A stretch of 64,000 nucleotides of DNA from Paracoccaceae bacterium (GTDB lineage: Bacteria > Pseudomonadota > Alphaproteobacteria > Rhodobacterales > Rhodobacteraceae). Below, piece after piece: positions 32,850-55,334 of the stretch (positions within the stretch are counted from its first letter, which is position 1; each line of letters begins with the position of its first letter). Under the pieces are notes generated by a model, which saw only the letters and a program-made list of their open reading frames with translations, made no database searches and had not been told where the DNA came from. The stretch is taken from NCBI GenBank assembly GCA_965221575.1, contig CBDCSM010000007.1, positions 84,358-148,357 of the forward strand. The letters run 5' to 3'. Made by a program: the position numbers and the translations under genes.

Positions 32850-34427
32850 ATGGTGGATGTCAGAGCGTTCCAGAGATCGTCGGAGCAAGACACCTCCTCG
32901 ACCGAACTTCCGTATAATATTGAACTGGAACAGAACCTCCTCGGCGCATTACTCATCAACAATGAAGTCTTCTCGAAGATCGAGGGAGTCGTCGCCGCGG
33001 AGCATTTTTTCGATCCTGTCCACGCGAAGATATTCGGATTGATTTCGGACCGGATCCGCGCAAACACCATCGCCTCACCGATCACACTCAAGGTCTTCCT
33101 GGAAAACGACCCGGGACTGGCTGGAATAGGTGGCCCCGCCTACCTCGCGAGGCTCGCCGGATCGGCAACTTCGATCTTTGCATCCAGGGACTACGCCAAA
33201 ATCATCCATGACCTGGCAGTACGCCGAAGCCTGATTTCTCTTGGCGAAGAAATCTCCATGAAGGCAGCAAGGGTCGATGCGGACACCGAGCCTGAAGAGC
33301 AGATCGTCGAAGCCGAGCAGCAGCTCTACCAACTCGGGGAACACGGCCGGATCGACCGCGGTTTTCGCAGCCTGAGAAAGGCACTCACGGAGTCCGTTGA
33401 CATCGCCACCGCGGCCTACCAGCGGGGCAGCGGGCTGGCCGGACTGGCAACCGGCCTTCATGACCTGGACCAAAGGCTCGGCGGGCTTCACAAGTCTGAT
33501 CTGGTTATCCTCGCGGGAAGGCCGTCGATGGGCAAGACCGCACTTGCCACCAACATGGCCTTCCATATTGCCACCCATCGCGACCGCGACGGAACGAACG
33601 GTTCAGGCAATGACAAGGTCCAAGGGGGGGTCGTCGGGTTTTTCTCCCTCGAGATGTCGCGTGAGCAGCTTGCCACGAGGATACTCGCCGACCTGGCCCG
33701 AACACCTTCCCACCTGATTCGGCAAGGCAGGGTCGAAAGGGACGACTTCCGAAAATTTGTCGAAGCGGCAAACAAGTTTGAAGCCGCTCCGCTGTTCATC
33801 GATGACACACCGGCTTTGCCGATTAACCAGGTCGCCAGTCGGTCAAGAAGACTCAAGCGGACGCACGGGCTTGATCTGATCGTTGTCGACTACCTTCAGC
33901 TTGTTCGCCCGACCAATCTCAGGGACAGCCGCGTCAACGAGATCACCGAAATCACCCAGGGGCTGAAGGCGCTGGCGAAAGAACTTGATGTCCCGGTCCT
34001 CGCCTTGTCCCAGCTTTCCAGGCAAGTCGAAAACCGTGACGACAAACGACCGATGCTGTCGGACCTTCGCGAGTCGGGCTCGATCGAGCAGGACGCCGAT
34101 GTCGTGATGTTCGTGTTTCGCGAGGAATATTACGAAGAACGGAAAAAGCCATCGGAAGACGACGGTGAGAAACTGAAGGAATGGCTCGAAAAGATGGAAA
34201 AAATCCATGGTGTTGCCGAAGTCATAATCGGCAAGCAACGTCATGGTCCGATCGGAACCGTCGAACTCAGTTTCGAGAGCCAGTTCACCAGGTTCGGCAA
34301 TCTCGCAAGGGACCGCGACAAACCGGCGTATGGCGCACCTGGCGGATCATCAACTTACGGTTATCGATCAACAAGTTCGTCGGCCGGAAACCTTCCTTTT
34401 CCCGATGACGACGAGTTGCCCATCTGA
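32850..34427 (+). CDS. dnaB: Replicative DNA helicase DnaB
   Basis: 525 aa. N-terminal LPYNIELEQNLLGALL, Walker A GRPSMGKTA, and the DLIVVDYLQL and LSQLSR motifs. Confidence 0.9.
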   Translation: MVDVRAFQRSSEQDTSSTELPYNIELEQNLLGALLINNEVFSKIEGVVAAEHFFDPVHAKIFGLISDRIRANTIASPITLKVFLENDPGLAGIGGPAYLARLAGSATSIFASRDYAKIIHDLAVRRSLISLGEEISMKAARVDADTEPEEQIVEAEQQLYQLGEHGRIDRGFRSLRKALTESVDIATAAYQRGSGLAGLATGLHDLDQRLGGLHKSDLVILAGRPSMGKTALATNMAFHIATHRDRDGTNGSGNDKVQGGVVGFFSLEMSREQLATRILADLARTPSHLIRQGRVERDDFRKFVEAANKFEAAPLFIDDTPALPINQVASRSRRLKRTHGLDLIVVDYLQLVRPTNLRDSRVNEITEITQGLKALAKELDVPVLALSQLSRQVENRDDKRPMLSDLRESGSIEQDADVVMFVFREEYYEERKKPSEDDGEKLKEWLEKMEKIHGVAEVIIGKQRHGPIGTVELSFESQFTRFGNLARDRDKPAYGAPGGSSTYGYRSTSSSAGNLPFPDDDELPI

Positions 34428-34492
34428 GGTCGACGCTTCCCCCTTGTCGATCGGCACTCACAACCGGGAAGGGCAGCCGAAAGTAGACGCTA

Positions 34493-35698
34493 GTGTTGTG
34501 TTCGATTTTGGGGATTCCGTTTTTCCCTGGAGTGTGATTCAACCGCTCCCGGCGAAAGCCGCACAGTTTTCGAACGGGAGCAGAGCTGCAATGGCAAAGA
34601 GCAGGAGAACCAAGATCGTCCTCAGCGAACAAGACCGGGAACGTCTCGAGAGGATCAAGACCGATCCGCATTCGATCCTCAAGCATGTGCAGAGGGCGAC
34701 CATCATCCTTCACCTCGGCGACGGCCTCACCCTGTCGCAGACGATGAGGGCCACCGGCATGTCCAAGCCGACGGTCTGGCGCTGGTGGGACCGCTTCCTC
34801 GTGGAGGGTGTTGACGGCCTGCTTTACGACATCCCCAGGAGACGGGGCCGCAAGCCGATATCCGAGGACAAGGTCAGCGAACTGATCGCGCTTGCGATGT
34901 CGCCGCCGCCGGAGCACGCCAGTCACTGGACGCTGCGGGCGCTGGCGAAAAAGATGGGGATCGCCGTCTCGACGGTGTTCGGCATCCTGAAGAGCCATGG
35001 CCTCAAGCCCCACAGGGTCAAGACATTCAAGGTCTCCCGCGATCCGAGGTTCGAGCTGAAGGTCCGCGATGTCGTCGGCCTCTACGTCAACCCGCCCGAC
35101 CACGCTGTCGTCATCTCGGTGGACGAGAAGACACAGATCCAGGCATTGGGACGGACGCAGAATCCTCTGCCGATGAAGCCCGGCCATCCCGAGACCCGCA
35201 CTCACGATTACAAACGCAATGGTACTACCTGCCTGATGGCGGCCCTCGATGTCGCCACCGGAAAGGTCACCGGCCAGATGGTCAAGCGTCACCGCTCGGA
35301 GGAATTCCTCGCCTTCCTCGATCTCGTCTCCGAGGGGATCGAGCCCGGAACCCAGGTTCATGTTGTCCTCGACAACGTCTCCTCTCACAAATCGTTCGAG
35401 GTCAACGAATGGCTGAAGGACAACGCCAATTGGACGTTTCACTTCACTCCGACCTCGGCCTCGTGGATGAATGCTGTCGAGGGGTTCTTCTCCAAGCTCT
35501 CGAGGCAGAGGCTCAAGCACGCGATCTTCAACTCGCTCGACGAGTGCATCGCGGCGATCGAGGGTTACATCGAGCATCACAATGCCAATGACGCCCGCCC
35601 GTTTCGCTGGAGCAAGAAGCCCGAAGATCTCGTGGAGGCATGGAAGAAGGGTCACCAGAAGTTGCAGGAATCGGCATCGTGAAAAAGAATCAAACCAC
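34493..35698 (+). mobile_element. IS630-family insertion sequence flanked by TA
   Basis: 1206 bp. The ends read TA|GTGTTGTGTTCGATTTT...AAAGAATCAAACCAC|TA, with imperfect terminal inverted repeats. The TA on both sides fits IS630/Tc1 TA target duplication. Confidence 0.65.
34591..35682 (+). CDS. IS630-family DDE transposase
   Basis: 363 aa from MAKSRRTKIVL.... Two N-terminal HTH units, then the DDE region (VISVDEKTQIQAL, HVVLDNVSSHKS, WMNAVEGFF). Confidence 0.85.
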   Translation: MAKSRRTKIVLSEQDRERLERIKTDPHSILKHVQRATIILHLGDGLTLSQTMRATGMSKPTVWRWWDRFLVEGVDGLLYDIPRRRGRKPISEDKVSELIALAMSPPPEHASHWTLRALAKKMGIAVSTVFGILKSHGLKPHRVKTFKVSRDPRFELKVRDVVGLYVNPPDHAVVISVDEKTQIQALGRTQNPLPMKPGHPETRTHDYKRNGTTCLMAALDVATGKVTGQMVKRHRSEEFLAFLDLVSEGIEPGTQVHVVLDNVSSHKSFEVNEWLKDNANWTFHFTPTSASWMNAVEGFFSKLSRQRLKHAIFNSLDECIAAIEGYIEHHNANDARPFRWSKKPEDLVEAWKKGHQKLQESAS

Positions 35699-35844
35699 TA
35701 GCGCCAATACCTGTCGATTGGTTGGCTGGATGGTATGATGTCGCAGACTTGTTGCCAGTGTTTCCGGACCCTGAAACCCGAACCCGGACAACTCTCAATC
35801 CAATTTGAATCGACAGGGTACAAGCGATATGTGCCTGAGGGCCG

Positions 35845-36915
35845 TTGCCGGAAAAAGGAACGACTTTGGCCAGTCCCGATCTGACCATCGACCTCGACGC
35901 GATCGTCGCCAACTGGAAGGCCCTGGACCGGATGTCGGCCGCGTCAGTCGAGACCGCGGCTGTCGTCAAGGCCGATGGATACGGACTCGGCGCCGATCGT
36001 GTCGTCACGAGCCTGCGCCGCGCGGGTGTGCGAACCTTCTTCGTCGCGATTGCAGAAGAAGGGCCGGCGGTCCGCCGTGCAGCCGGTCCGGATGCGGAAA
36101 TATTCGTCTTCGGCGGCCACATGGACGGGGACACCCGAATTCTTGCCGACCACGGTCTCATTCCGCTCCTGAATTCGAGACAGCAGGTACGACGTCACCT
36201 TGCGTCGCTGCCAGAACATCCGTTCGGCCTCCAGATCGACACGGGGATGAGCCGGTTGGGCATGTCCGACGGGGAATTCGCCTTCGTACGCCGAGCGATC
36301 GATCCGGGAGAGACCAGGTTGGTCGTCAGTCACCTTGCATGCTCGGACGACCAAACCGACGAACGGAACCAGGCTCAACTCGCGGCCTTTCGAGAACTGA
36401 CGGCGGACTTCCCTGCCCCGCGTTCTCTATCCGCGACCGGAGGAATACTGCTCGGTTCGGAGTTTCACTTCGACCTGTGCCGGCCAGGGATCGGATTATA
36501 CGGAGGCGCGCCGTTTCGGTCCGGCGCACCGGCCGTTTCACTGGAAGTCCCCGTGATCCAGGCCCGCGAATTGTCCATCGGAGATTTCGTTGGCTACGGA
36601 GCGGACTGGACTGCGAAAAGGGCGAGCAGGATCGCGACAATTGCCGCTGGATATGCCGACGGGTTGCACCGGGTCATGGTTGGCGGCGGCGCATTTTCCT
36701 GTTGGGTCGGTGACACCCCTTGCCGGGTCGTGGGAAGGATATCGATGGATCTGATCACGATCGACATCACGGACATCGAGGGCACGCCCGAACGGGTCCA
36801 GGTTCTGAACGAACACCAGACAATTGACGATCTGGCCGAAGTCGCGGGCACGATCGGATATGAAATCCTCACTACCCTTGGACGACGCTTTCGTCGCAGG
36901 TACATAGGTGGCTGA
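35845..36915 (+). CDS. alr: Alanine racemase
   Basis: AAVVKADGYGLG (PLP-Lys motif) and the C-terminal MDLITIDITD pattern. The start is uncertain (TTG at 35845 or TTG at 35866). Confidence 0.85.
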   Translation: MPEKGTTLASPDLTIDLDAIVANWKALDRMSAASVETAAVVKADGYGLGADRVVTSLRRAGVRTFFVAIAEEGPAVRRAAGPDAEIFVFGGHMDGDTRILADHGLIPLLNSRQQVRRHLASLPEHPFGLQIDTGMSRLGMSDGEFAFVRRAIDPGETRLVVSHLACSDDQTDERNQAQLAAFRELTADFPAPRSLSATGGILLGSEFHFDLCRPGIGLYGGAPFRSGAPAVSLEVPVIQARELSIGDFVGYGADWTAKRASRIATIAAGYADGLHRVMVGGGAFSCWVGDTPCRVVGRISMDLITIDITDIEGTPERVQVLNEHQTIDDLAEVAGTIGYEILTTLGRRFRRRYIGG

Positions 36916-37765
36916 TCGTTACAATGGTTCTGCCCAGGTGCCTGAAAGCCAGCGAGTCACTTTCATGATATTGCGATTGGTCCACTGGATCGGCTTGGTA
37001 TGCGCTTCGGTCGGGAGATCGACTCTTGCAATGTGCAGAGCGGTCGGAAGCGTCGCGATGTTTTCCGCAAATACGGTCAGCCACATCGTGCGTCCGCCCG
37101 TCTATGCCCGGGAATTCGGACAGCAGCTCATTTCCGTGGGCTACTTCAGCCTGCCAGTCGTCGGACTGACAACCCTGTTCACCGGGGCAGCGCTTGCCCT
37201 TCAAATCTTTGCTGGCGGTTCCCGCTTCAACGCCGAATCCGTCGTTCCCACGATCGTCGCGATCGGAATCATCAGGGAACTCGGACCGGTCATCGGCGGA
37301 CTGATGGTCGCTGGCAGGGTCTCGGCTTCAATTGCGGCCGAAATCGGCACCATGCGGGTGACTGAACAGATCGATGCTCTTGAGACGCTGTCGACCAATC
37401 CCATCAAGTACCTGGTCGTTCCGCGCGTCCTCGCCGGAGTCGTTACCATGCCGGTCCTCGTGTTCATCGGCGACGTCATCGGGATTTTCGGAGGATTCCT
37501 GGTCGGGACGCAAAGGCTTGGCTTCAACGCGGCCGCCTACATCCACAACACATGGAACTTCCTCGAAGTCGGCGACGTGGCGTCGAGCCTGATCAAGGCG
37601 GCCGTATTCGGGTTCATCATCACGATGATGGGCTGTTACCATGGATATCGGTCGGGACGCGGCGCCAAGGGCGTCGGGCGCGCCACGACAAACGCGGTGG
37701 TTGCGGCATCTGTGCTGATTTTCGCGGCCAACTATCTTTTGACGGAATTGTTCTTTTCAGCATGA
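36908..37765 (+). CDS. mlaE: MlaE-family ABC permease
   Basis: 285 aa. Motif GRVSASIAAEIGTMRVTEQIDALETLSTNPIKYLVVPR is typical of MlaE/YrbE. Confidence 0.8.
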   Translation: MADRYNGSAQVPESQRVTFMILRLVHWIGLVCASVGRSTLAMCRAVGSVAMFSANTVSHIVRPPVYAREFGQQLISVGYFSLPVVGLTTLFTGAALALQIFAGGSRFNAESVVPTIVAIGIIRELGPVIGGLMVAGRVSASIAAEIGTMRVTEQIDALETLSTNPIKYLVVPRVLAGVVTMPVLVFIGDVIGIFGGFLVGTQRLGFNAAAYIHNTWNFLEVGDVASSLIKAAVFGFIITMMGCYHGYRSGRGAKGVGRATTNAVVAASVLIFAANYLLTELFFSA

Positions 37766-43198: not shown

Positions 43199-43662
43199 AC
43201 TAAGCTTCGCTTTAAAAAATTTTTCATCCCAAAACGCCGCTTTCCGATCGAAGGACCCACTGTTTTGACGATCTGTGTTGCGTCAAATCCAGCACGCCGA
43301 TCCACGGCGGAAAATGCCGATCGGTGAACTACTGGCACCACATTACCTGAAAACATGCACTTTTGTCTCTCTCTCTCTGGAACGCAGGATCTCGCAAGGA
43401 TGAAGTCACAAAATTGCAGGATAAATTTGTGAGGCGTTCTCTATTGAGAGTGAAAATCATGAAACGACTTGCTTTGCGCCGTCCTTCAAAGGAGGTCACG
43501 CCCCATGTCGAGAAGAGTACCCGGTACCGTGCGCACACGGCAAACCCTTAACCGAAGTTTGACATTCGCAAAAAAAGGTGATTGTTTTTCAGTGGCTTGT
43601 GCCGACTGAACCGGCGGTTATGGCACTACAAGTCCGTGCCCGGACATGATGTCACCGACCCG

Positions 43663-44331
43663 TCATGCAACCATCCTCCGCTTCTTCCCGGGCTCGGGAT
43701 CAAGACCGAGTGCCCGATAGATCTCCCGTTGCCGGGGCTCCGCCCGGGTCGCCTTGCGGATGTGAATGACCCGTCCGTCGGCACGACGGAAACAGGCGGT
43801 GACCCGGATCTGGCCCGAAAGAATGTCCCGCAGCGTTCTCCAGCTCGCCGTCTCGCCATGAGCCCGAAGGCGGCTGCGAATGACCTGAACCAGCTGGTAG
43901 GCCAGAACGCTGATGAACAGGTGACCGTCGGACCGGACCTGCTTGCGGTGATACACGGGACGCAGACCCAGTTCGGATTTGAGCGAACGGAACACCGATT
44001 CCACATCCGTCAACATGGAATAGGTCCGCCACAGGGTCTCCGCATCCCAGTCGAGCTGGTTGGTGCGCAGGCAGTAGACGCCGGGATGGGTGAGCATGGT
44101 GCCGCTACGCGGTGTCCGCGTCCAGATGAGCCCGATCGCCTTTTCGGCATTCTCCGGATCGGTGACGACGTCGATACTGTAGTGCTGGCCAGCGCCGCGG
44201 CTCTTCTGCCGGATGCGTCCGATCCGTTGCCAGACATAGGCGACCTGCTTGCGGGTACGCGGTCGTGACAACCCGTCGTGCAGCTTCTGCAACTCGTTCT
44301 CGAAGCGCGTCATGAAGCGTTCGGTGATGCC
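43663..44331 (-). pseudogene. IS1634-like DDE transposase, C-terminal fragment
   Basis: ...ITERFMTRFENEL...YCLRTNQLDWDAETLWRTYSMLTDVESVFRSLKSELGLRPVYH.... It continues fragment 50633-51093 exactly once the IS21 element and one ATGCC copy are removed. Confidence 0.75.
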
Positions 44332-44524
44332 TGCCAAATTTCACCAACGTACCACCCGAATTTCATCCAACGTAGCCACCCAATTTCACCATGGTAGCCA
44401 CCCGGAGCGAAGCGACGCGATCAAGCTGAATTCGGCAAGCAGATCTCCTTTTCTGTTCCCGCCTCGAGGTTATTCCCCCGAAGGCCCTTTTTCAAATCCA
44501 TATTGAATGGATTGTTGTTGTTGT

Positions 44525-44658
44525 CCTGTGGAGCCTGTGGGCGAGAAGCCCGCGAGTGTGGTCAATGCGGTGGGCGAGGCGCCAGCCTCGTCCACGGCTT
44601 GTCCACACGTCCCGCAGGGCGCGGGCTGGCCCGAAGGGCTCGTCCACAACTCCACAGG
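44525..44658. repeat. 134-nt extended imperfect hairpin in the istB-to-terminus spacer
   Basis: CCTGTGGAGCCTGTGGGCGAG...GTGGGCGAGGC-GCCA-GCCTCGTCCAC...CTCGTCCACAACTCCACAGG. Nested complementary blocks were read directly from the sequence. Confidence 0.6.
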
Positions 44659-44753
44659 ACCCCTCCCGACCGATGCAGGGTTGCGTCTCGGCTCGCCGCC
44701 TCCGGCGGCGGCGCCGATTCCGCGTGGCGAAGCGCGGCCCCTTCTTTCGTCGC

Positions 44754-45509
44754 TCATTTTCCGGCCTCGGCGCTGTCGGCGCGCATTGATGTGCCGTGCA
44801 ACGCGAACCGGATCGCGCCATGGACGAGGCGGTCGAGTATGGCGTCCGCGACTGTCGGCTCTGCGACTTTCTGATGCCAGTCGGGCACCGGCAACTGGGA
44901 GGTGACGATCACCGAGCGGCGATCGAAGCGGTCGTCGAGGATTTCCAGCAGGTCGCGCGCCCGGGCCGCGTCGACGGGTGCCAGGCCCCAGTCGTCGAGG
45001 ATGAGGACGTCGAGCCTGGCGAGATCGCGGTAGAGCTTGGGAATGCTCCCTTCGCCATGGGCGATCCGTAGATTGGTGAGCAGTCGCGGGACGCGCAGGT
45101 ACTGGGCCTGGAAGCCTTCGAGACATGCCTTGTGGGCGAGCGCGCAGGCGATCCAGCTCTTGCCCGTGCCACACGGGCCGGTGATCAGGATGTTGGCGCC
45201 GCTTCGGATCCAGCTGCAGTCGCCGAGGCCAAGCACGACGCTGCGGCTGAGGCCACGGGGTCGTGTGAGGTTGATGTCCTCGAAGCAGGCGTCCTGGTGG
45301 CGCAACTGGGCCTTCTTGAGGCGCCGCTGAAGGGCGCGCGAGCGACGCTCGACCACCTCGCGGTCGATCAACAGTGCAAGTCGGTCCTCGAACGGCATGT
45401 CGTCGAGATCGTGGCGCGCCATTTGCTCCTGGAAGGCGGCCAGCATGCCCGGCAGGCGCAGTGAGGCGATGCGCTGGGTGAGCGGGTGCAGGATGGCAGT
45501 GTCGGTCAT
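44754..45509 (-). CDS. istB: IS21-family helper ATPase IstB
   Basis: 251 aa. Walker A GPCGTGKSW, Walker B LILDDWG. Its start overlaps the istA stop. Confidence 0.85.
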   Translation of the reverse strand: MTDTAILHPLTQRIASLRLPGMLAAFQEQMARHDLDDMPFEDRLALLIDREVVERRSRALQRRLKKAQLRHQDACFEDINLTRPRGLSRSVVLGLGDCSWIRSGANILITGPCGTGKSWIACALAHKACLEGFQAQYLRVPRLLTNLRIAHGEGSIPKLYRDLARLDVLILDDWGLAPVDAARARDLLEILDDRFDRRSVIVTSQLPVPDWHQKVAEPTVADAILDRLVHGAIRFALHGTSMRADSAEAGK

Positions 45510-46288
45510 CTGTAATACTCCGGTCCTCTGATATTCGAATGGTTGATGGGTGCAGTCTCGGGTTCCGGCTCGTCGACGAGATCGGTTCCGGTCCGCAGGA
45601 TGTTGTCGAGGCCGCGCCAGGTCCTGGTGCCGAGATCCAGCGCGTAACGGCAGGCGTTATCGAGGCGATCCGGCCCATGGGTCTTCGCCAGGCGGAGCAC
45701 GCCGTAGCAGGAGCGGAAGCCGAATTCCGGATTGTGATTGCGTTCCAGGATCGTGGTGACAAAGGCGTAAACGTGGGGACCGATGTCGCGTGCACGATGT
45801 TCGAGTTGTGTGCGGGTGTTCTCGACATCGGCGCGCTGGTGCGCCTCGGGCTGATGCTCCTTGAGCGTGGTGGCACGCCCCCTGGCATCGCTGCGCAGAT
45901 GGCTTGCGATCTGTTTGCCGCGGTAGAACACGTCGATCATCCGGCCGCGCAGGCGGACATCGACCTTCTTGCGGGAATAGTTGTGGGGCACGGAATAGAA
46001 ATGGCGGTCGATGGCAATATGGTAGTCGCGATGGACAGTGTTCTCGCGCCACACCGTCCGCTGCCAGCGCTGGTCCGGCAGCGGCTTCATGTGTGGGACA
46101 TCGACGCTTTCGAACCGGTTGAAGCGGTTCTCGCCCGTGCCGTCGGCGTAGGGTTTCCGGTTGACCTTTCGCACCTGGGCTGCAATTGCCCGGTTCAGCG
46201 ATGCCAGGTCATGGAAAACATGTTTGCGCAACGGCGCCAGGACCCGGCGGCCGGCCAAAAGGACTCCATTTTCGACCAGTGCCTTGTC
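45506..46288 (-). pseudogene. istA: IS21-family transposase IstA, C-terminal fragment
   Basis: The true IstA sequence starts at DKALVENGV...APLRKHVFHDLASLNRAI.... Upstream residues of the tracked ORF come from the inserted element. Confidence 0.8.
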
Positions 46289-46290
46289 AG

Positions 46291-46617
46291 TTGTTTCCAA
46301 ATGCGGTTGGTTCCGCGGTTGCGAACGAGTTTCGGGACGTTCGCATAACGCACCGGTTCCATCCGCTGCGGGGGCGTGCACTGCGGATCCACGACCGCGT
46401 GACGGTGCTCAATGTTCCGCTGGTTCGGCACCGTGTGGAGGGTCCGGCGGGTCCGGTCTTTGTCAGCGTTCCTGTTTCCTGGACGTCTCTTCGTCACGTG
46501 GATGATTTCGAACGCGTGTCCTCGGGCCGCAGCCTGCTGCGTTCGGACGATCTGGTGGCGCTTCGCGAACTTGTGGATTGCCTTCTGGCCGCGGTCGGGG
46601 ACCGTAATCAGAAATGA
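46291..46617 (+). CDS. Small conserved left-end ORF (orfL-A; possibly DUF5372-like), lacking its own ATG/GTG start in the integrated state
   Basis: ...VRITHRFHPLRGRALRIHDRV...VEGPAGPVFVSVPVSWTSL...LVALRELVDCL. It is homologous to the left-end ORF of cassette B. The only in-element start candidate is a TTG 2 nt from the element end. An in-frame ATG lies at the other end of the element (49694). Confidence 0.5.
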   Translation: MFPNAVGSAVANEFRDVRITHRFHPLRGRALRIHDRVTVLNVPLVRHRVEGPAGPVFVSVPVSWTSLRHVDDFERVSSGRSLLRSDDLVALRELVDCLLAAVGDRNQK

Positions 46618-46737
46618 TGGCGCTGTTTGATCATAAATTCGGGCGCTTTCGGCTTCCCCTTCCCGGCATTCCGGGGCACGGAGGACAATTTTATCCCGTA
46701 TTTAAAGGCTTTTCTGCGCAAATGCCGCGATCATGCC

Positions 46738-46767
46738 TTGACAGCGGTGGAGCAGGTAGCGTATTAT
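46738..46767 (+). promoter_or_regulatory. Candidate sigma70-type promoter (TTGACA-18 nt-TATTAT) inside cassette A
   Basis: Hexamers were read directly in an AT-richer patch about 35 nt upstream of the HTH gene ATG at 46800. Confidence 0.35.
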
Positions 46768-46799
46768 TTAGTGAACATATATCGGAAGAACGCGACCGC

Positions 46800-47270
46800 A
46801 TGGAAGACCAGCGCAAAAAGCAGGACCGGCTCAGGGAGGCCGGCACCCTCAACCGGACGCCGGAAAAGGTCGGCGATCCGGCGTTCGCCGCGGGCGACTT
46901 CTTCGATTCCCGCGACCTGCTCCAGGTTCGCTACGAGATGGTCCGGCTGGTCCGGAAGGGAGGCGCCACGCTCGCGCAGGCCGCGGAACGCTTCGGGGTC
47001 TCCCGCCCGACCTGCTTCCGCATGGTCAAGTCGTTCGAGCGTGGCGGGCTGCAGGAGCTGATCCCGGCGAAACGGGGGCCGCGCGGACCACACAAGATCA
47101 CCGCGGAGATGCTCCGCTTCGTCGAAGACCACAGGGAGCGGCATGGACGGGTGGGTGCGCGGCGGCTGGTGCGGATGATCGAGGCCGAGTTCGGCGTCAG
47201 GATCCATCCGCGCGGTCTCGAGAAGGCGCTCGGGCGGGATAAAAAAAAATCGCAGGAGCCCGGGCCATGA
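46800..47270 (+). CDS. Helix-turn-helix protein of cassette A
   Basis: 156 aa. HTH (ATLAQAAERFGVSRPTCFRMVKSF) followed by a second DNA-binding-like segment. An alternative upstream start at 46614 overlaps the orfL-A stop, but it spans AT-rich sequence that does not look protein-like. Confidence 0.65.
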   Translation: MEDQRKKQDRLREAGTLNRTPEKVGDPAFAAGDFFDSRDLLQVRYEMVRLVRKGGATLAQAAERFGVSRPTCFRMVKSFERGGLQELIPAKRGPRGPHKITAEMLRFVEDHRERHGRVGARRLVRMIEAEFGVRIHPRGLEKALGRDKKKSQEPGP

Positions 47271-47572
47271 TGCGCGCCGACGCGCCGCAGGTTTACGAGG
47301 GCTGGCGCCAGCTCTGGCTGTCGGGCGGCGACAGCAACGCGATCGCCGCGCTGCGCTACCACGGCCTGCGCCGTGCCCTGGTCATGGCCGGGGCCGCATG
47401 CAACCGCACCGGCCCTCGGCCGCCGCTGCCGTCGTCCGCCAACGTGGACCTGCCCGTCGCCAAGGCCGCGATCACCGAGGCCGCCAGCCAGGTCCGGCAC
47501 CTGCTGCGTGTTCCGACACCTCCCGCAAACGGCGGCACGACACGGGAATACGGGGAGAATCGTCATGTCTGA
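47267..47572 (+). CDS. Small hypothetical protein of cassette A
   Basis: 101 aa. Has an ATGA overlap with the HTH gene and an 8-nt overlap with the recombinase ATG. No family recognised. Confidence 0.45.
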   Translation: MMRADAPQVYEGWRQLWLSGGDSNAIAALRYHGLRRALVMAGAACNRTGPRPPLPSSANVDLPVAKAAITEAASQVRHLLRVPTPPANGGTTREYGENRHV

Positions 47573-49697
47573 AGCACAGACGCGCAAGATCGCACCGCAT
47601 CATCTGGAACGTGAGGCATGCCTCTACGTGCGTCAGTCCTCGCCTCGACAGGTCATGCAAAACACCGAAAGCACGCTGCGCCAGTACGGGCTGAGCCAAA
47701 GGGCGATGGCGCTGGGCTGGCCTGCGGAGCGTATCCGGGTGATCGATGACGACCAGGGCAAGTCGGGCGCCCACAGCGAAAACCGTGACGGCTTTCGCGA
47801 CCTCATGGGGAGCGTCGCAGCCGGCGATGTGGGTATCGTTCTCGGCCTGGAAGTCTCGAGGCTGGCCCGCGACAATGCCGACTGGCACCAGTTGTTGCGT
47901 ATCGCCGGCATCACCAATACGCTGATCCTCGACGAGACCGGCATCTTCGATCCCAACGACGTGAACGACAAGCTATTGCTCGGCGTGAAGGGGACCCTGA
48001 GCGAGTTCGAGCTTCAGGGGATCATGGCACGGCTGATCGGTGGCCAGCGCAACGCGGCTGCACGGGGCGCCCTGAAAATGATTTTGCCGATCGGCCTGGC
48101 CTACAACGACAGGGACGAGGTTGTGTTCAATCCCGACCGGTCGATCGTCGATGCCATCCGCCTCGTGTTCGACGGCTTTCGCCGCAGGGGTTCGGCGATG
48201 GCGGTGGTGAAGTGGATGCACCGGGAGAACATGACGCTGCCGTCACGTCCGCTGAGCGGTCCGACCCGCGGTGAGCTGCGCTGGGCCCTCCCGAGCTTTG
48301 CGCAAGTTGGCCGCATTCTCAAAAATCCCCGCTACGCCGGTGCGTTCGTCTACGGTCGACACCGTTCCCGGCGACAGGGTGACGGGACCACGACGTACCG
48401 GACCGTGCCGATGGACGAGTGGGAGGTCTGCATTCCCGGTGCTCATGCGGGATTCATCGACTGGGACGAATTCCTCCGCAATCAGGCCACCCTGGCGAGC
48501 AATGCCGCATCGTTCCTGCGGTCGGGCTCGCGCACTGCGGCACCGCGCGAAGGGGCGGCGCTCTTGCAGTCGCGGATACTCTGCGGCCACTGTGGGCGGC
48601 GCATGTTCGTGAACTACAGCCGCGCCGCCAGGGCGAACGGCGACACCCGAGCCCCGTATTACTACGTCTGCAAGGAAGACCTCGTCCGCTACGGTCGAAA
48701 GACCTGCCAGAGCATGCGCGGCGATCTGGTCGACATCGAGGTATCCCGCTTCGTGATTGAGGTGATGAACCGAAAGAACATCGACCTGGCACTTGCGGTC
48801 CAGGAACAGGTCCGTGCGGAGTTCGCCAGCGCCGATGCCCAGCGCTCCCGGCGCATCGAGGCCATGCGCTACGAAGCCGACATGGCGCGCCGCAGGTTCT
48901 TCGAGGTCGATCCCGCCAACCGGCTCGTCGCGGCTGCGCTCGAAGCCGAATGGAACGATCGGCTGCGTGTTCTGGAGGAGGCCTGTCAGGAGCGCGAAAC
49001 GCGCGCCGCGGCCCGCGATATCGAACTCTCCGAGCGCCAGGTGGAGCGCGTCAGGGAACTGACCCGGGACTTCGAGCAGGTCTGGCATGCTCCCGAGACC
49101 GGCAACACCGACCGCAAACGGTTGCTCGGGCTTCTGATCGAAGATGCGACGCTGACCCGGGACGGCTACGAGGTCACCATCGGTCTGCGCATGCGGGGCG
49201 GCAAGTGCCTGACACTCGAAACGCAGCTGCCGAGGCCGATCGCACTGATCCGCAAGACCCCTCCCGAAACCATCGCCGAACTCGACCGCCTGTTGGGGAT
49301 GCACACCGATGAGCGAACCGCGGAAGAGCTCAACCGGATGGGGTACAGAAACTGGAAAGGTGAGTGCTACACCGCCAAGCGCGTCCGCAGCACACGACAG
49401 ACATATGGATTGCCCAGCTATCGCGAGCGGGAAAGGAAACGGCTTCGTGACCAGGGCTTCGCGGACGCCGGGGAAATGGCTGATCGGCTCGGCCTCAACG
49501 AGGGAAGCGTCCGGAAAATGGGCAGGACCGCGGACGACCCGCGCGTGGAGCGAGCGGTCATTCGCACGGATGGGCGGACATATTGCATGTACAGGGCCAA
49601 CGGCCACGACGAATCGGCTTGCGGGGAGCCGGGAGACGACGGCATGATCCCGCAATCGACAGTGGAAATCCCAAAAGCGCAACAAGGTGCATCATGA
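47565..49697 (+). CDS. Large serine recombinase (cassette A)
   Basis: 710 aa from MSEAQTRKIAPHHLEREACLYVRQSSPRQV (catalytic Ser motif). Has a resolvase domain (GLEVSRLARD), a recombinase domain, a Zn ribbon (CGHCGRRM...YYYVC), a coiled coil and a long C-terminal extension. Confidence 0.85.
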   Translation: MSEAQTRKIAPHHLEREACLYVRQSSPRQVMQNTESTLRQYGLSQRAMALGWPAERIRVIDDDQGKSGAHSENRDGFRDLMGSVAAGDVGIVLGLEVSRLARDNADWHQLLRIAGITNTLILDETGIFDPNDVNDKLLLGVKGTLSEFELQGIMARLIGGQRNAAARGALKMILPIGLAYNDRDEVVFNPDRSIVDAIRLVFDGFRRRGSAMAVVKWMHRENMTLPSRPLSGPTRGELRWALPSFAQVGRILKNPRYAGAFVYGRHRSRRQGDGTTTYRTVPMDEWEVCIPGAHAGFIDWDEFLRNQATLASNAASFLRSGSRTAAPREGAALLQSRILCGHCGRRMFVNYSRAARANGDTRAPYYYVCKEDLVRYGRKTCQSMRGDLVDIEVSRFVIEVMNRKNIDLALAVQEQVRAEFASADAQRSRRIEAMRYEADMARRRFFEVDPANRLVAAALEAEWNDRLRVLEEACQERETRAAARDIELSERQVERVRELTRDFEQVWHAPETGNTDRKRLLGLLIEDATLTRDGYEVTIGLRMRGGKCLTLETQLPRPIALIRKTPPETIAELDRLLGMHTDERTAEELNRMGYRNWKGECYTAKRVRSTRQTYGLPSYRERERKRLRDQGFADAGEMADRLGLNEGSVRKMGRTADDPRVERAVIRTDGRTYCMYRANGHDESACGEPGDDGMIPQSTVEIPKAQQGAS

Positions 49698-49706
49698 AAC
49701 AAGAGA

Positions 49707-50459
49707 CTTGTCGCGCGGCTTCTTGACCCGCGCCGGCAAGCCCTCGACGCCGTAATGCTCAAGCAGATCGGCGTAGGTCTCGTTCAGGACCGGTTCGTAG
49801 CGTGACGGGGTCTTCACTGCTGCCTTGACGTTGTCGGGCACCGCAACCTGCGGCGCCCAGCCCATGTCTTCGAAACAGCGCACGTGAGAGTTGCACCAGT
49901 CATCGATCTTCTGGCTGAGGGTCGCTTCGGCGTAGACCCGACCCGAGACCCCCATCGAGGCGACGAACACCTGCGCGGCATGCTCAACCCCGTCGAGGAA
50001 CAGCGGGATGGTCGTGCCAGCGTAATCAACGAACAGCCGTTCGCCGGGACGGCGGTTCTGGCGCATCGTCACATCCACGCACGGCCGCCAGTCGCGGAAC
50101 CGGCGCGTCCAGGTCACATAGCTCATGCCGTCGGGATGGGTCTCGCGCCATTCCTCCCACAGCAATTTCAACGTCACGCCGCGGTCCGAAAGGTCGCTCT
50201 CAACCGTTGCCCAATCCACATCTTCGTCCGCAGGCCGAACCTGCCGCACCGGATAGAGCGCCGCCTCCAGCACCTCATCGTCCATGTCGGCCGCTTCCGG
50301 CCAACTCAAGCCCGAAGCCGCAAACCGCTCCAGGGTCTGTCCCACCGAGCGTCGGGCGAGACCGCAGTGGGTCGCGATCGCCCGGGCGCTGCGGCCCTCG
50401 TCAAAGTGAAATTCCAGTATCTTCCTGACTTTCCTCATGGGCAGCCTCTTCTGTGCCAT
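49707..50459 (-). pseudogene. istA: IS21-family transposase IstA, N-terminal fragment
   Basis: MAQKRLPMRKVRKILEFHFDEGRSARAIATHCGLARRSV... (HTH) through the DDE region (...LFVDYAG...) to ...PARVKKPRDK. The last 5 tracked codons and the stop come from cassette A. Confidence 0.8.
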
Positions 50460-50632
50460 TCCTTACTCCTCGGACTGATCGCAAAATCCGAGGTGTAAAC
50501 CGGCATCCTGATTCAAACCAAAGCCAGTCACCCCGAGGGGTGGCTACCATGGTGAAATCAGGCGGCTACCTTGAGTGAAATTCGGTGGCTACTTTCAGTG
50601 AAATTGGGTGGCTACTTTCGTGAAATTTTGCA

Positions 50633-51093
50633 ATGCCCAGCTCCTTCTCGGCCCGGGCCTCGGAGCAACAGAACAGGCGGAGCTCGGAAGCCTCCTCGTC
50701 GGTGACGGCCTGGATGTGGACCTTCCCGCGGGTGCGGGTCTCGATCGCCGTCGCCAGGTCGGGGTCGAAGTGGCGGACCCGTTCGCGACTGACCACGAGA
50801 TAGCGGTAGCCATTGTCGCGGAGCCAAGCGACGTTGTCCTCGGTGGCGACGCCGGCGTCCATCACCACCAGCGCATCCCGGGGTGCCGAAAGCCTGGTCA
50901 GCATCCCCTCCAGCGTGCTGCTTTCCTTGACGTTGCCGGGGAACACGTCCGAGCGCTGCACGAAACCGCTGCCGTCGAGAACCAGGCCCAGGGTCAGTAA
51001 CGGACAGTCGCTGCGCTTCTCCTTCGAGTGGCCACGCTGGGCCTTGGGCTGCTTGTCAGCCGCACCCTCGAAAAACGTGTTGGTCAGGTCGAA
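50633..51093 (-). pseudogene. IS1634-like DDE transposase, middle fragment
   Basis: DLTNTFFEGAADKQPKAQRGHSKEKRSDCPLLTLGLVLDGSGF...VVMDAGVATEDN...ARAEKELGI. Bounded by cassette B on one side and the IS21 element on the other. Confidence 0.75.
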
Positions 51094-51444
51094 CGAACTG
51101 CCATCTGACTGATCACCTCCATGTTGCATTTCTGTACGGATTCCGGGAGCGCCCCGCAACCCGTTGACATGATACTGTTTTCTTCATGTTGCCGCGCTCG
51201 GGCTTGAAACGCCTGTTCCTGGTTTACAACGTGCAACTGCCGAAATGCCCGCGATTGGGGCCCATGTTCGCCGGGTCCGGACCCGCCGACCCGGTGCGTC
51301 CCCCTCGCTTGAACGCCGGATCCTCGCCGAAAACCCGTACGACAGGGGATCCGACGGCGATTCCGCGCAGGCAGGGTCGCAAAATCGGCCCCGCAGGCGG
51401 GGTTTACGTCATGCAACTCCGGGGCCGCAGCCGGGATCACCGGG

Positions 51445-53631
51445 TCAGCCATCGCCTGCCTCCGGGGTCTCGAAAAGCGGAAGCCGGTCGTCGCCAAGCT
51501 GAACATACAATCCCTTGACTGAACCGCGGCGGATGTGCCGGGCCTTCAGCGCACCGGACCGGATCCGCTGCCAGATCACCTGACGGGACACGCCAAGACG
51601 TTTCATCGCCCTGTGAAGCGACACGAAGCCGGCCGGCGGTTCGTCGCAGAACTGGCTGCGCAACTCCGGCGTCATGCGGATCCGATAGGGTGCCCCGGAT
51701 GCCGGTTGTTCGGCCGGCACGATCCCTGCCCGGATCCAGCGGTAGAGCGTGCCGACAGTTGTTTGCAGTTCACGGGCCGCTTCGGCCACGCTGAGCAGGG
51801 GGGCGTTGGTGTCTCGCCTGTCGGCGCGCCAGGCCGGAATGTCGTTGCGCAGCCGCAACTGCCGGACGAGATACGCGGTGAACGCAAGCCCCTTGGCGGT
51901 GCGCCGCCCCTGGCGGTTGAGAATGATCGCCGTCCGGGCGTCCGGGTAATGCGCGGCCAGCCGGCGGACGAGCGCCACCGTGTCGATATCGTCACGGACC
52001 ACCGCCGGAGCCTGGTGCGAGGGCAGCTCAAACTCATCCGTCGCGCCCCCGTGCCAACGCACGAGGATCCGAATGACTTTCGCCGTCCCGTCGCGCCAGA
52101 GCATGACCTCCTCCACCAGGCAGGCCAGAAGACGCTTGCGGTCCCGGGCGGTGACAACGGGAGACTCCCAGAGCCGGGAGAGGCGCATGCCCAGGGCATT
52201 CAGCCGCGCCAGGGGCGGCGGTTCGGGACGGTCCCGCTGCGCCTGCTCCAGGGCGTCCCGGGCCGCGGCCAGGGCCTCCAGGGCCCGGTTCCAGTCGCGT
52301 TCGAGCGTATCGGCGACCAGGCGATTGTCGGGGTCCACCTTGCGATAGCGGCGTTCCGCAAGCGAGGCTTCATAGTTGCAGCGGTCAACGTCCAACCGCA
52401 GTGTCCGATGCGCCTCCTGGTCCTTTTGCTGCTGCTGCCTGAACGCCTCGGCCGCCGCCTCGATGCCGGACGCCGAAACCGCTTCAAGGAATGTGTCGCC
52501 AATCAGGGCATCGATGCGCTTGCCGCCGACCGTCATGCACGACCGTCGGTCGGCATCTCCGTTGCGTGGCGCGCAGATGTAGGTCCACGCCTTGCCGTAG
52601 GCGACGTTCATGGCGCGGCCGCAGTGACCGCAGACCACGCGACCCTGCAGCAGCGCCTTGCCTTCCCGCTCTGCGCCCCCCGTTCCCGATGCCGTCGAGT
52701 TCGCCGACAGCCGGTCCTGGATCTCAAGCCAGACCGGCCAGGGGACGTAACCCTCGTGATGATCCTTGATCAGGACATGCCAGTCATCCGGGCCAACCTT
52801 GCGGATGATGCGCCGGACCTGGTTGTCGTCGCCCAATACCCGCTCCGTCCGCTGGCGCCCGTAGACATAAGCGCCCCCCATGGCCGGATTGCGGAGAATC
52901 GAATGGACGCGCTCATAGCGGGCTTCGCTCCACACGACGGTGTCGCTGCCCGATTGACGGCTGGGAAGCCGGACCCCCTCATCCCGAAGCGCCTGGATCG
53001 CCTGGCGTGCCGAGCCGTGCGCCAGGAAACCGGAAAACACCCGGTCGATCGCATGCCGGACCTGCAGGTCCGGATCCTTGAGCAGCGAAGTCCCCTCCAG
53101 CACGTATCCGATCGGAATGTGGTGATACAATTCGCCGCGGGCGGCCTTGTTCCGGATGCCGCCCTGCAGGCGCGTCCGGATCAGGAAGGCTTCCGATTCC
53201 GAAAGCGTGCCCTTGATCGAGAGAACAAGATTGTCGTCATGGCGGGCCGGGGAATACACCTGCTCCCCTTCAACCAGCAGCGTATCCGTCATCCGGCACC
53301 AGTCGAGCAATTGAAACCACTCCACAGGATTGCGCGCCAGGCGACTGACCTCAAGACCGAAGACCGCCCCCACACGACCGCGCGCGACCGCATCGGCAAG
53401 CCGCGAAAAGCCGTCGCGTTCGCCCGCAAACGAACCCGACCGGCCCTGGTCCGCATCCACGGTCTCAATCAGGTCGTCGTGCCAGCCCAGGGCGCGCGCC
53501 TCGTTGGCCAGCGCGTACTGACGCTCCGTGGATTCCCGGTTCGCGTTGACCTGCGTCGGCGTCGATTGCCGGATGTAAATCAGGGCACGGCGTTCAAGGT
53601 GGCGGGCCGTGATCTTCTCGCCTGCGCTCAT
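51445..53631 (-). CDS. Large serine recombinase (cassette B)
   Basis: MSAGEKITARHLERRALIYIRQSTPTQV (catalytic Ser motif), GLEVSRLARN, Zn ribbon CGHCGRAM...YICAP, a coiled coil, and two C-terminal HTH-like segments. Its ATG at 53631 overlaps the upstream ORF stop (ATGA). Confidence 0.85.
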   Translation of the reverse strand: MSAGEKITARHLERRALIYIRQSTPTQVNANRESTERQYALANEARALGWHDDLIETVDADQGRSGSFAGERDGFSRLADAVARGRVGAVFGLEVSRLARNPVEWFQLLDWCRMTDTLLVEGEQVYSPARHDDNLVLSIKGTLSESEAFLIRTRLQGGIRNKAARGELYHHIPIGYVLEGTSLLKDPDLQVRHAIDRVFSGFLAHGSARQAIQALRDEGVRLPSRQSGSDTVVWSEARYERVHSILRNPAMGGAYVYGRQRTERVLGDDNQVRRIIRKVGPDDWHVLIKDHHEGYVPWPVWLEIQDRLSANSTASGTGGAEREGKALLQGRVVCGHCGRAMNVAYGKAWTYICAPRNGDADRRSCMTVGGKRIDALIGDTFLEAVSASGIEAAAEAFRQQQQKDQEAHRTLRLDVDRCNYEASLAERRYRKVDPDNRLVADTLERDWNRALEALAAARDALEQAQRDRPEPPPLARLNALGMRLSRLWESPVVTARDRKRLLACLVEEVMLWRDGTAKVIRILVRWHGGATDEFELPSHQAPAVVRDDIDTVALVRRLAAHYPDARTAIILNRQGRRTAKGLAFTAYLVRQLRLRNDIPAWRADRRDTNAPLLSVAEAARELQTTVGTLYRWIRAGIVPAEQPASGAPYRIRMTPELRSQFCDEPPAGFVSLHRAMKRLGVSRQVIWQRIRSGALKARHIRRGSVKGLYVQLGDDRLPLFETPEAGDG

Positions 53632-54085
53632 CGTCCATCTCCGCTGCAGCAACCTTCGTCATCAGTTGCGACAGTTGCGTCACAAACGCCGCCCGGCTCT
53701 CCTGCGGAAACCTCTGCCACCGCGCCAGACGTTCCTCCCAGGCCAGAAGCGCCAGAAGCGGCGGTTCCCGATCGTGGCCCTGTGATCCCAACCCGATCCT
53801 CCAGTGTCCTGATCCGTTCAAGCAGGGCGAAAAATGCGTCAAGCGTGCCGCGGGTGCAAGCCACCGGGCGCGCGCATCCGCCCAGCGTCGTCCAATCCGA
53901 CGGAATCCGGAAACGCTGACCGTCCGGCATCTCCACATCCAGAAAAACGCGGCCGCAGGCGTGCCTGCGAACCTTGTTAACCTTCAGTTCCCGGGTATCG
54001 TACGGGTGCTTGAAACGCTTGAGAAAAACCGGCTCCGACGGCAGGCGCCGGGAAAGCCCTCGAAGTGTATTAGTCTGTTGCCCCT
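53628..54085 (-). CDS. Left-end ORF of cassette B (orfL-B), homologous to orfL-A, with no in-element start upstream of its conserved motif
   Basis: The frame is open from the element end: ...VFLKRFKHPYDTRELKVNKV...VEMPDGQRFRIPSDWTTL...LDAFFALLERIRTL.... The first canonical in-element start (GTG 53936) lies after the conserved RF.HP motif. The C-terminal 50 codons are low-complexity, and a second frame overlaps them. Confidence 0.5.
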
Positions 54086-54777
54086 TCGAAAAGCGTCACC
54101 GTGTGTCCCAGTGAGAACAGGTCCGTCACCCGCTCGAACATGTGGGTCTCGATCTCCCGGCGCCGCGACAGCAGGGCATCCGAGGCCCGGTACAGGCGCA
54201 TCATGTCCATGGTCTCGAAATCGACATCGAGCAGTTCGCCGAGCGCACTCCGCTCGCAGAGCCAGCGCCAGGTCGCACGCTCCGAGCCCGGCACCGCCAT
54301 GCGGCCGATGATCGACCCCATGGCCACGGCCCGCGAGCGGCGGTTGAAACCCAGGCGCACAAGAAGTTCCCCGATGCCGAGTTGTTCCATCGCCCACAGC
54401 CCCACGTGCTCGACACCGGCAGAACGCGGGCGCACCATCTCCAGGGACGTCACGTCCACCGTTTCCATTCTGGGACCGGTCCCGGCGCCTGCGACCGGAG
54501 GCGAACGGCTGACCAGCCGGGCGGCGATGCGCTGCGCTTCCGCCTCGACCTCATCGGGCCAGGGGAGCGGCAGAAGTGTCTCCTGGCGCCCGATGAGCTG
54601 GGTGATGCGCGCGCACAACAGGCGCCAGTGTTTCTTCTCCACGGGGAAATTGCTTCCGAGGTTGAGGAGGGTCCTCTGCCTGACCCTGTCGCCCTGTCGT
54701 TCGTTGCGGACGAGGCGGTAGGAGAAGTACTCGGTTCCGTCCTCTGTGGTGCGTGTTTTGGCGCGCCTGATGAACAT
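54086..54777 (-). pseudogene. IS1634-like DDE transposase, N-terminal fragment
   Basis: MFIRRAKTRTTEDGTEYFSYRLVRNERQGDRVRQRTLLNLG... through ...DLFSLGHTVTLF. The frame then runs into cassette B and stops. Confidence 0.75.
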
Positions 54778-55334
54778 GGCGTGAGTTTATCATGTTGTGG
54801 GGAGTGCTGGAATCCCCTTTCTTTCAGATTATGGCACCACGATCCACTGGCACGAATACAATATCAGGTAAAAACAGAGCGTTGGAGGATACGGGAAGTC
54901 AAAAATACCCCGAAATCGGCAGAATCGCGCCAAAAAATGTCAAACATGGGTTAACAAATTTATGGAAGGCTACCTGACCTCGCCGGACGGCCACGCCTCC
55001 GCACCTGAAATCCTCCTGAATGAACGAGCCTTAAAAAGGCCTGATGACCTGCAACCCTACTTGAGCCGCAGGAAAAACAGCAGACTTCGGACTTGACGAG
55101 ATGGGACCCAAGGGAACAGAAATGAGAGGTGACGAACAGAGACACTGGATGACTTCTAGGCAAATGTTGGTCGAATTCGCCCTGGTTCATGCGCTGCATG
55201 ACCTGTGAATCCTTCCCGGCCAGATTTCTCCTTTTCGGGATTGATACGCCTGATTTTGCGTCCGTCCGGTCACAAGTGCGGCGCATCAGGGCATCAGGAA
55301 TCTCGGACGTTTTTTTGACGGAGCAAACATCGCG

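Follow-up and report, generated by a model that had tools for sequence, protein, structure and literature searches.

Cassette B occupies positions 51093..54089, on the minus strand, of a 64,000-nt window of Paracoccaceae bacterium DNA (assembly GCA_965221575.1, contig CBDCSM010000007.1), where it forms a discrete insert in the transposase gene of an insertion sequence (IS) of the IS1634 family. The window is the whole 64,000-nt stretch analyzed, and positions refer to it unless another contig or locus is named. From the sequence comparisons described below, we read cassette B as an autonomous, cargo-free integrative element of 2997 bp that would be moved by conservative site-specific recombination through its own large serine recombinase (LSR), and we put the probability of this reading at roughly 0.85. 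The element is probably active and site-specific, homing into the DNA for the catalytic-aspartate motif of IS1634-family transposases, and is a site-specific parasite of a parasite. An initial annotation of the window had described it together with a second LSR element, cassette A.

A discrete insert in an IS1634-family transposase gene

The outer transposase gene starts on the minus strand at 54777, reads ...GHTVTLF down to 54090 and resumes at 51092 with DLTNTFFEG..., just as the initial annotation had it. The N-terminal part (54091..54777, minus strand) covers positions 1-132 of the NCBIfam IS1634 transposase model NF033559, with about 94-95% identity to a paralogue on contig C6 of the same genome, and the next part, from the catalytic-aspartate motif DLTNTFFEG (50633..51092, minus strand), covers positions 137-294. 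Both halves therefore belong to an IS1634-like transposase, as had been proposed, and cassette B splits it between positions 132 and 137. Two copies of TCGAA (plus strand), at 51089-51093 and 54086-54090, bracket the insert as reported; the period is 2997 bp with one copy of the crossover dinucleotide included, the earlier figure of 2992 bp having omitted one copy of the core.

Empty versions of the site occur both in this genome and in public data. The C6 paralogue is uninterrupted (603 aa; 290.6 bits on NF033559, cut-off 100) and continuous across the insertion site, where it reads TLIDLTN and has TCGA in common with the window, so that this intact homologue places the junction where it was expected. 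Public Logan contigs from two runs join position 51088 directly to 54086, skipping 2997 bases with five letters that fit both sides, and the sequence of this empty site is the attB that the initial annotation had predicted, ACGCTTTTCGACCTGACC. A second type of joint, again found in two runs, bears the letters of the C6 type. These joints argue that the insert is real and precise and that the empty site exists in nature. The insertion brings no duplication of the target other than the shared core. Excision of cassette B would restore the transposase reading frame exactly.

Near-identical copies in other genomes match cassette B over its full length and for 4 bp beyond each end, while their flanks differ. 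As the copies match end to end inside different flanks, the 351 nt of non-coding DNA after the LSR stop codon (51094..51444, minus strand; about 340 nt in the initial annotation) belong to cassette B rather than to another element; this region is present in every copy, with patchy conservation. LSRs are usually the integrases of large elements, and the LSR and its neighbors might on that ground be the cargo or remnant of the integration module of a larger prophage or integrative and conjugative element (ICE). We find this scarcely credible: the boundaries are exact and enclose no more than 2997 bp, the unit is found by itself in different flanks, and many proteins of the family lie on public contigs of 2.6-3.5 kb holding nothing else, so that the empty sites and the recurrent 3-kb unit refute it. 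One further Logan contig, 3027 nt in length (run X4, record 30), covers only the element itself (window 51092-54090) plus 28 further letters. Logan uses k = 31, and 3027 = 2997 + 30 is the length expected of a circular 31-mer cycle; from its length alone, the contig possibly represents an excised circle or a tandem.

Target sites and crossover

Copies were found by a protein-guided scan of species genomes and by look-ups of cluster members, and we tabulated 16 sites with both junctions, at LSR identities of 64-100%. Thirteen of these 16 sites lie in IS1634-family transposase genes, cut immediately ahead of the D codon in [Y/F/I]-D-[L/V]-[T/S]-[N/S], and in all 13 the LSR gene runs in the same direction as the transposase gene. 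Every target transposase scanned with NCBIfam matches NF033559 above its cut-off (190-233 bits for the targets at loci L008, L237, L240, and L223), and the targets are also confirmed as DDE_Tnp_1 by Pfam. Examples, with a slash at the cut, are TVTLF/DLTNTFFEG, TLVLY/DVSSSFLEG, TIALY/DLTNTFYEG, DILLY/DLTSTYFES, and TIAFY/DLTNVHYHG. Outside the table, a relative from a metagenome-assembled genome (MAG) of Bryobacterales (L015; 58% LSR identity) has an attR that reads Y/DLTNVHTFG in a homologous transposase, again with the LSR gene co-oriented. With L015 included, the target genes represent about ten different sequences, and the transposases of the window type and the L008 type share only 28% protein identity. 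These junctions identify as attB the stretch that codes for L-[Y/F/I]-D-[L/V]-[T/S]-[N/S], which is the first of the catalytic-aspartate motifs in DDE transposases of the IS1634 family. The initial annotation had placed both cassettes inside transposase genes of other ISs, which is correct (istA of IS21 for cassette A, the IS1634 transposase for cassette B), and the preference for transposase genes that it had raised is borne out among close relatives at the level of a single codon.

The same distribution might arise if the LSR had only a weak sequence preference, selection purged insertions into useful genes, and insertions into ISs were neutral and multiplied by hitch-hiking. The three remaining sites, in a branched-chain ABC (ATP-binding cassette) permease gene, in a hydantoinase gene, and at a site of unknown kind, share only a short core such as CTC-TA-CG, as this explanation would have it, and composites of IS and element do multiply. 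Such a composite is found at several loci of one MAG chromosome, and a three-level composite with an extra 1.46-kb IS within the LSR gene is found at two loci (L012:2541-9037 and L013:2541-9037; 6497 bp, 99.4% identity), so that this nest must have moved as a whole, using the ends of the outer IS. Neutrality, however, would hold anywhere in a transposase gene, whereas at least 10 independent insertions share a single orientation and, out of about 1.8 kb of gene, a single codon boundary, in targets down to 28% identity. Random insertion followed by selection cannot explain these insertions, which argue that the DNA of the motif is recognized; the three other sites mean that specificity is relaxed, not absolute. 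We therefore regard weak preference as an unlikely explanation: selection and recognition probably both act, and recognition is required.

The near-identical and related copies come mostly from Paracoccaceae MAGs, with up to seven or more copies per genome or chromosome, and the sequence is also present in sponge metagenome runs. Among 400 genomes from this family searched at the DNA level, there was no other copy of cassette B. A 16-mer from the 3' end of the element hit 137 loci in metagenome and viral contigs, all chance matches and none of them related.

Comparison of the 16 sites, together with the dyad of attP, locates the crossover. On the minus strand of the element, the attL core (54086..54090; TCGAA on the plus strand) has its crossover dinucleotide at 54089-54090, TT on the minus strand, and the attR core (51089..51093; TCGAA on the plus strand) has it at 51092-51093. 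Two positions to the left of the core, attL has the base of the target and attR that of the element; from +1 rightwards the reverse holds, with a constant CGA from the element in attL and variable target bases in attR. This switch on either side places the exchange within the dinucleotide between. In the window copy the dinucleotide is TT; 12 of the 16 sites have TA and one has AT, the TA-type junctions including L008, L234, L236, L240, L014, L222, L223, L245, and L246. In the 50-bp attP reconstructed from the joined ends, 15/24 positions match as a dyad about the inferred centre; about 16 shifted centres, 1-9/24 do. The centre falls on TT, with which TTCGAA begins on the minus strand, rather than on the hexamer as a whole. 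The attP arm motif ACAGACTA is found in the more distant elements L018-L020 too, and its spacing from the crossover equals that in cassette B.

A split start, the recombinase, and the proposed cycle

The two ends of cassette B carry the two parts of one gene, orfL. The 3' terminus of the element, which is the P-left arm of attP (51093..51120, minus strand), holds within its last 28 nt a Shine-Dalgarno sequence GGAGGT (51120..51115), a 10-nt spacer, an ATG (51104..51102), and three codons. At the other end lies the orfL body (53628..54089, minus strand), whose frame is open from the first base of the element and which has no start codon of its own ahead of the conserved part. With the ends joined, the terminal ATG and its three codons continue in frame into orfL; in the integrated form, the reading from this ATG meets a stop within two codons of target sequence. 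The split start is conserved in six elements of the B clade (cassette B, L008, L014, L222, L223, and L015), and in 6/6 of them the orfL stop overlaps the LSR start as ATGA. The right end of cassette A likewise carries AAGGTG and an ATG. The block that the initial annotation had seen at both right ends, that of A and that of B, is thus real: it is the Shine-Dalgarno sequence and ATG of orfL, a meaning that had been missed. Read by eye, the ends of the reverse transcriptase (RT)-targeting Burkholderiaceae elements L018-L020 also seem to have a split start. Since the element ends with the start region of orfL and begins with its body, the gene would be complete, and OrfL translated, only in the excised circle, and the overlap of the orfL stop with the LSR ATG would probably boost translation of the LSR there.

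The orfL product appears to be a divergent DUF5372 protein. OrfL-A is a DUF5372 protein by its match to PF17342 (36.7 bits), and the OrfL homologues of L223 and L015 reach 20.2 and 18.4 bits on the DUF5372 model, whose cut-off is 25. BLASTP of OrfL-B against OrfL-A gives no match, and the two are linked only by profile comparison: hhalign of a B-clade OrfL profile against OrfL-A gives 81% probability (E 1.2e-5). A protein atlas also points OrfL-B to DUF5372, with a score of 0.92. Within the clade, OrfL-B and its L015 homologue share 35% identity (E 2e-16), and the frame is kept in relatives down to 58% LSR identity. The predicted model of OrfL-B is an SH3-like barrel plus a helix, at moderate confidence (mean predicted local distance difference test score, pLDDT, 69.5). 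A fold search with OrfL returned no significant neighbor; its weak SH3/Tudor/KOW-like matches (best E 0.07) may serve as a lead and do not indicate a function.

The insert had been described as encoding orfL-B and the LSR, and both are present; a third conserved open reading frame (ORF), of about 64 aa, had been overlooked. It lies in the +1 frame at 53594..53800 (minus strand), shares bases with the end of orfL, and runs 37 nt into the LSR gene. In the 56 codons just ahead of the LSR, the ratio of nonsynonymous to synonymous substitution rates (dN/dS) is 0.34-0.61 for the small-ORF frame and 0.8-1.25 for the orfL frame on the same bases, so that purifying selection there acts on the +1 frame. 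Gene callers call ORFs of 64-65 aa at this position in relatives. BLASTP finds no match between the small ORFs of A and B. In the 3' non-coding region, we found no Rfam match and, with a folding z-score of 0.13, no stable RNA. The motif TTGCA-Y-G-N-N-GTAAACC occurs there twice (window 51385-51425 and 51215-51245, minus strand) as a possible accessory binding site, and is partly kept in L222, L223, and L015. Internal repeats of cassette B were also considered and look like chance.

The recombinase itself, LSR-B (P0001; 51445..53631, minus strand), has 728 aa with the stop included in these coordinates, one more than the 727 first given. It comprises Resolvase (PF00239, 70.4 bits, residues 23-174), Recombinase (PF07508, 54.7 bits), and Zn_ribbon_recom (PF13408, 27.3 bits) domains and a long C-terminal extension; PF07508 and PF13408 score above cut-off, and the catalytic serine lies within YIRQS. 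Its dN/dS against relatives is 0.17-0.36, indicating purifying selection. The C-terminal part contains a fused excisionase-type helix-turn-helix (HTH) domain, HTH_17, at residues 619-659 (51676..51798, minus strand; PF12728, 37.8 bits), and this region also matches TIGR01764 (29.8 bits, cut-off 28.8). LSR-A and LSR-B are collinear homologues, as had been noticed, with 38% identity over 627 aa. LSR-A is without a C-terminal HTH_17, and cassette A has a separate HTH gene; cassette B has none, again as noticed, and carries its HTH_17 in the LSR instead. On comparison, the HTH at the C terminus of LSR-B proved distinct from the HTH protein of cassette A. We also rejected an IS607-type small serine recombinase, which has an N-terminal MerR-type HTH: in LSR-B, of 728 aa, the catalytic domain is N-terminal and the HTH lies at 619-659. 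DUF4368 was not among the Pfam matches of LSR-B at E up to 0.01, and sequence matches in the PDB cover the catalytic domain alone. The element has no mobilization module of its own (relaxase, origin of transfer): only orfL, the small ORF, and the LSR gene fit into the 2997 bp, and there is no other family match.

LSR-B reaches no NCBIfam equivalog. Its best match, far below threshold, is XisF (NF041201), the recombinase of a developmental excision system, and together with the exact restoration of the transposase frame this could suggest a domesticated IS switch, comparable to fdxN/XisF or sigK/skin, in which regulated excision restores the transposase and controls IS activity. With 70 bits, the match falls well short of the XisF cut-off of 375, and the element is tied to no single IS lineage, being found in unrelated IS1634 lineages, in non-IS genes, in many hosts, and in multiple copies. 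A switch is accordingly very improbable.

The proposed cycle of cassette B as an autonomous element is as follows. The LSR would excise the element as a circle and re-integrate the circle, choosing its target by recognition of DNA, namely a short degenerate core (about CTY-TA-CGA) and flanking bases. The conserved protein motif would keep this target sequence present across many IS lineages and hosts. Residence in an IS would be harmless to the host, and the element would ride along when intact copies of the IS mobilize the broken one in trans, in keeping with the composites seen at several loci. OrfL would be made only from the excised circle, where coupling would raise translation of the LSR and so favor re-integration.

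Several observations weigh against this account. We infer both the circle and the recombination from sequence, and neither was directly observed. The dinucleotides are mismatched at L239 (TT in attL, AT in attR) and L015 (TG and TA), and the commonest dinucleotide, TA, is palindromic, yet all insertions into transposase genes have one orientation. In characterized LSRs, a palindromic central dinucleotide would abolish orientation control, and mismatched dinucleotides are poorly tolerated; the palindromic TA with a single orientation and the mismatches do not fit this phiC31/Bxb1 rule. The three insertions outside transposase genes count on the same side. We identified no recombination directionality factor and found no consensus sigma-70 promoter near the 3' end of the element, and OrfL-B itself has no Pfam match.

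Nested surroundings, wider family, and known systems

BLAST against the whole genome gives the outer IS an extent of 43549-54956 and reveals a second interruption, by a 6.3-kb IS21 at 44331-50632; this IS21, which carries cassette A, makes the second cut in the outer transposase at 50632. The locus thus has three nested layers: the outer IS, the IS21, and cassette A. Cassette A splits istA of the IS21 between NF033546 positions 225 and 229. A second copy of the IS21 lies outside the window on the same contig (C7:153871-160194), in opposite orientation and with 99.4% identity, again with cassette A within istA; the broken IS21 was thus copied along with its parasite. The genome of the window contains at least eight copies of the LSR-element family, of five lineages. 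Five further LSR loci in it have 33-51% identity to LSR-B (C14:685933-688056, C14:671027-672967, C6:239263-241203, C12:623533-625473, and C2:145573-146901); one LSR type among them is represented by three copies, adjoining an IS66 transposase.

The family reaches well beyond this genome. At least 7977 proteins match LSR-B at E <= 1e-50, under source names that are generic recombinase or invertase, and a plasmid collection contains 467 records with relatives, mostly from rhizobia and annotated as "recombinase family protein." We surveyed the flanks of relatives at 92 loci. IS66 transposase is found in the flanks at 23/92, and in the four IS66 flanks checked with Pfam the fragment breaks off between positions 250 and 268 of a 284-position profile. 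At about 17/92 the element is abutted by a group II intron RT; other abutting genes encode IS4-type, IS91, and IS3 transposases, a tyrosine integrase, or another such element, and a few loci abut ordinary genes such as PPK2. A 56%-identical relative (L248-L250; element at about 1557-4467 of L248) splits the gene of TnpB, an RNA-guided nuclease, in an IS605-type element between profile positions 178 and 195.

Several individual relatives deserve mention. The TnpB cut falls about 15 codons before the GIDVG motif, and one metagenome assembly has the composite three times, on two contigs. In L018, L019, and L020 (Paraburkholderia, Caballeronia), 2.7-kb relatives lie on the opposite strand in the D-I/L-x-x-F-D motif of three different group II intron RTs. 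At L070:3856-5592, the opposite strand carries a truncated copy of a related LSR gene some 400 nt away from an LSR mini-element, which may have inserted into another element of the family. The P0011 group (L224-L233) has a 61%-identical LSR within a repeat of more than 6 kb at ten places in one metagenome, adjoining a 700-aa DruA-plus-DDE_Tnp_1 protein on the other strand; the ends of the LSR element itself were not found in this group.

At somewhat less than even odds, we advance a broader proposal: cassette B would belong, as one branch, to a very large radiation of LSR mini-elements without cargo, in which each branch has its attB in the most conserved motif of another selfish enzyme (IS1634, IS66, IS21, IS605 TnpB, or group II intron RT), and in which a shared, split-start DUF5372 gene senses excision and drives re-integration. 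Such elements would form a layer of hyperparasitism among bacterial mobile elements, with the DNA of transposase catalytic motifs as a portable landing pad in every host, and each would inactivate the IS it enters and then be carried by that IS. They would also provide attP/attB pairs of natural origin for a large and, as far as we found, uncharacterized family of LSRs, some members of which seem to tolerate variation in the central dinucleotide, a property of interest to builders of integrase tools. The split start of the DUF5372 gene would be a concrete way to express functions only when excised. For annotation, thousands of "recombinase family protein" genes beside "pseudogenized" transposase and RT genes could be read correctly.

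Among known units, plasmid pNGR234a of Sinorhizobium fredii NGR234 has a four-gene unit of DUF5372, HTH, small ORF, and LSR genes at 33989-37258 and in a second copy. We take it to be probably NGRIS-4 (y4bA-D / y4pH-K). Its gene order is like that of cassette A, and its LSR is 50% identical to LSR-A; its first gene is annotated as "DUF5372 family protein" and its last as "recombinase family protein," with no mechanism or target preference. Cassette B resembles this type in the small ORF that overlaps the LSR start and in an LSR of about 700 aa (728 in B), and differs in having HTH_17 fused to the LSR instead of a separate HTH gene.

The clostridial transposons Tn4451/Tn4453 (TnpX) and Tn5397 (TndX) have an LSR as sole "transposase," a circular intermediate, and several target sites. 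Cassette B differs from them in the absence of DUF4368 from LSR-B and of cargo from the element, in its crossover dinucleotide, and in a much more defined target. A TndX-like clade is mentioned in a large survey of LSRs, which does not mention transposase targets (PMC10083194). With the phage-type LSRs of phiC31, Bxb1, and A118, LSR-B shares the catalytic, recombinase, and zinc-ribbon domains, and its element shares an attP of about 50 bp with a dyad around the dinucleotide; unlike them, LSR-B extends about 250 aa further at its C terminus, with HTH_17 in that region, and the 3-kb, multicopy element is no phage. In the circles of IS911, IS2, and IS30-type ISs, junction promoters are formed when the ends join. 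Cassette B resembles them in that an expression signal is assembled only with the ends joined, but what it assembles is a ribosome-binding site and start codon rather than a promoter, and its recombinase is a serine recombinase.

Our literature searches found no description of such elements, of DUF5372, or of NGRIS-4, and no published description of the target preference. The nearest published concept is that of the streptococcal integrative mobilizable elements with serine integrases, which integrate into traG, maff2, or snf2 of Tn5252-type ICEs (PMC5357655). Like cassette B, they have their attB within a conserved gene that belongs to another mobile element; they disrupt this gene and travel with it (PMC5357655). 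They carry mobilization genes and cargo and target conjugation genes, whereas cassette B is 3 kb in length, is without mobilization genes, and targets the catalytic motif of an IS transposase. To the LSR mini-elements, cassette B adds an IS1634 branch and an architecture in which the HTH domain is fused to the recombinase.

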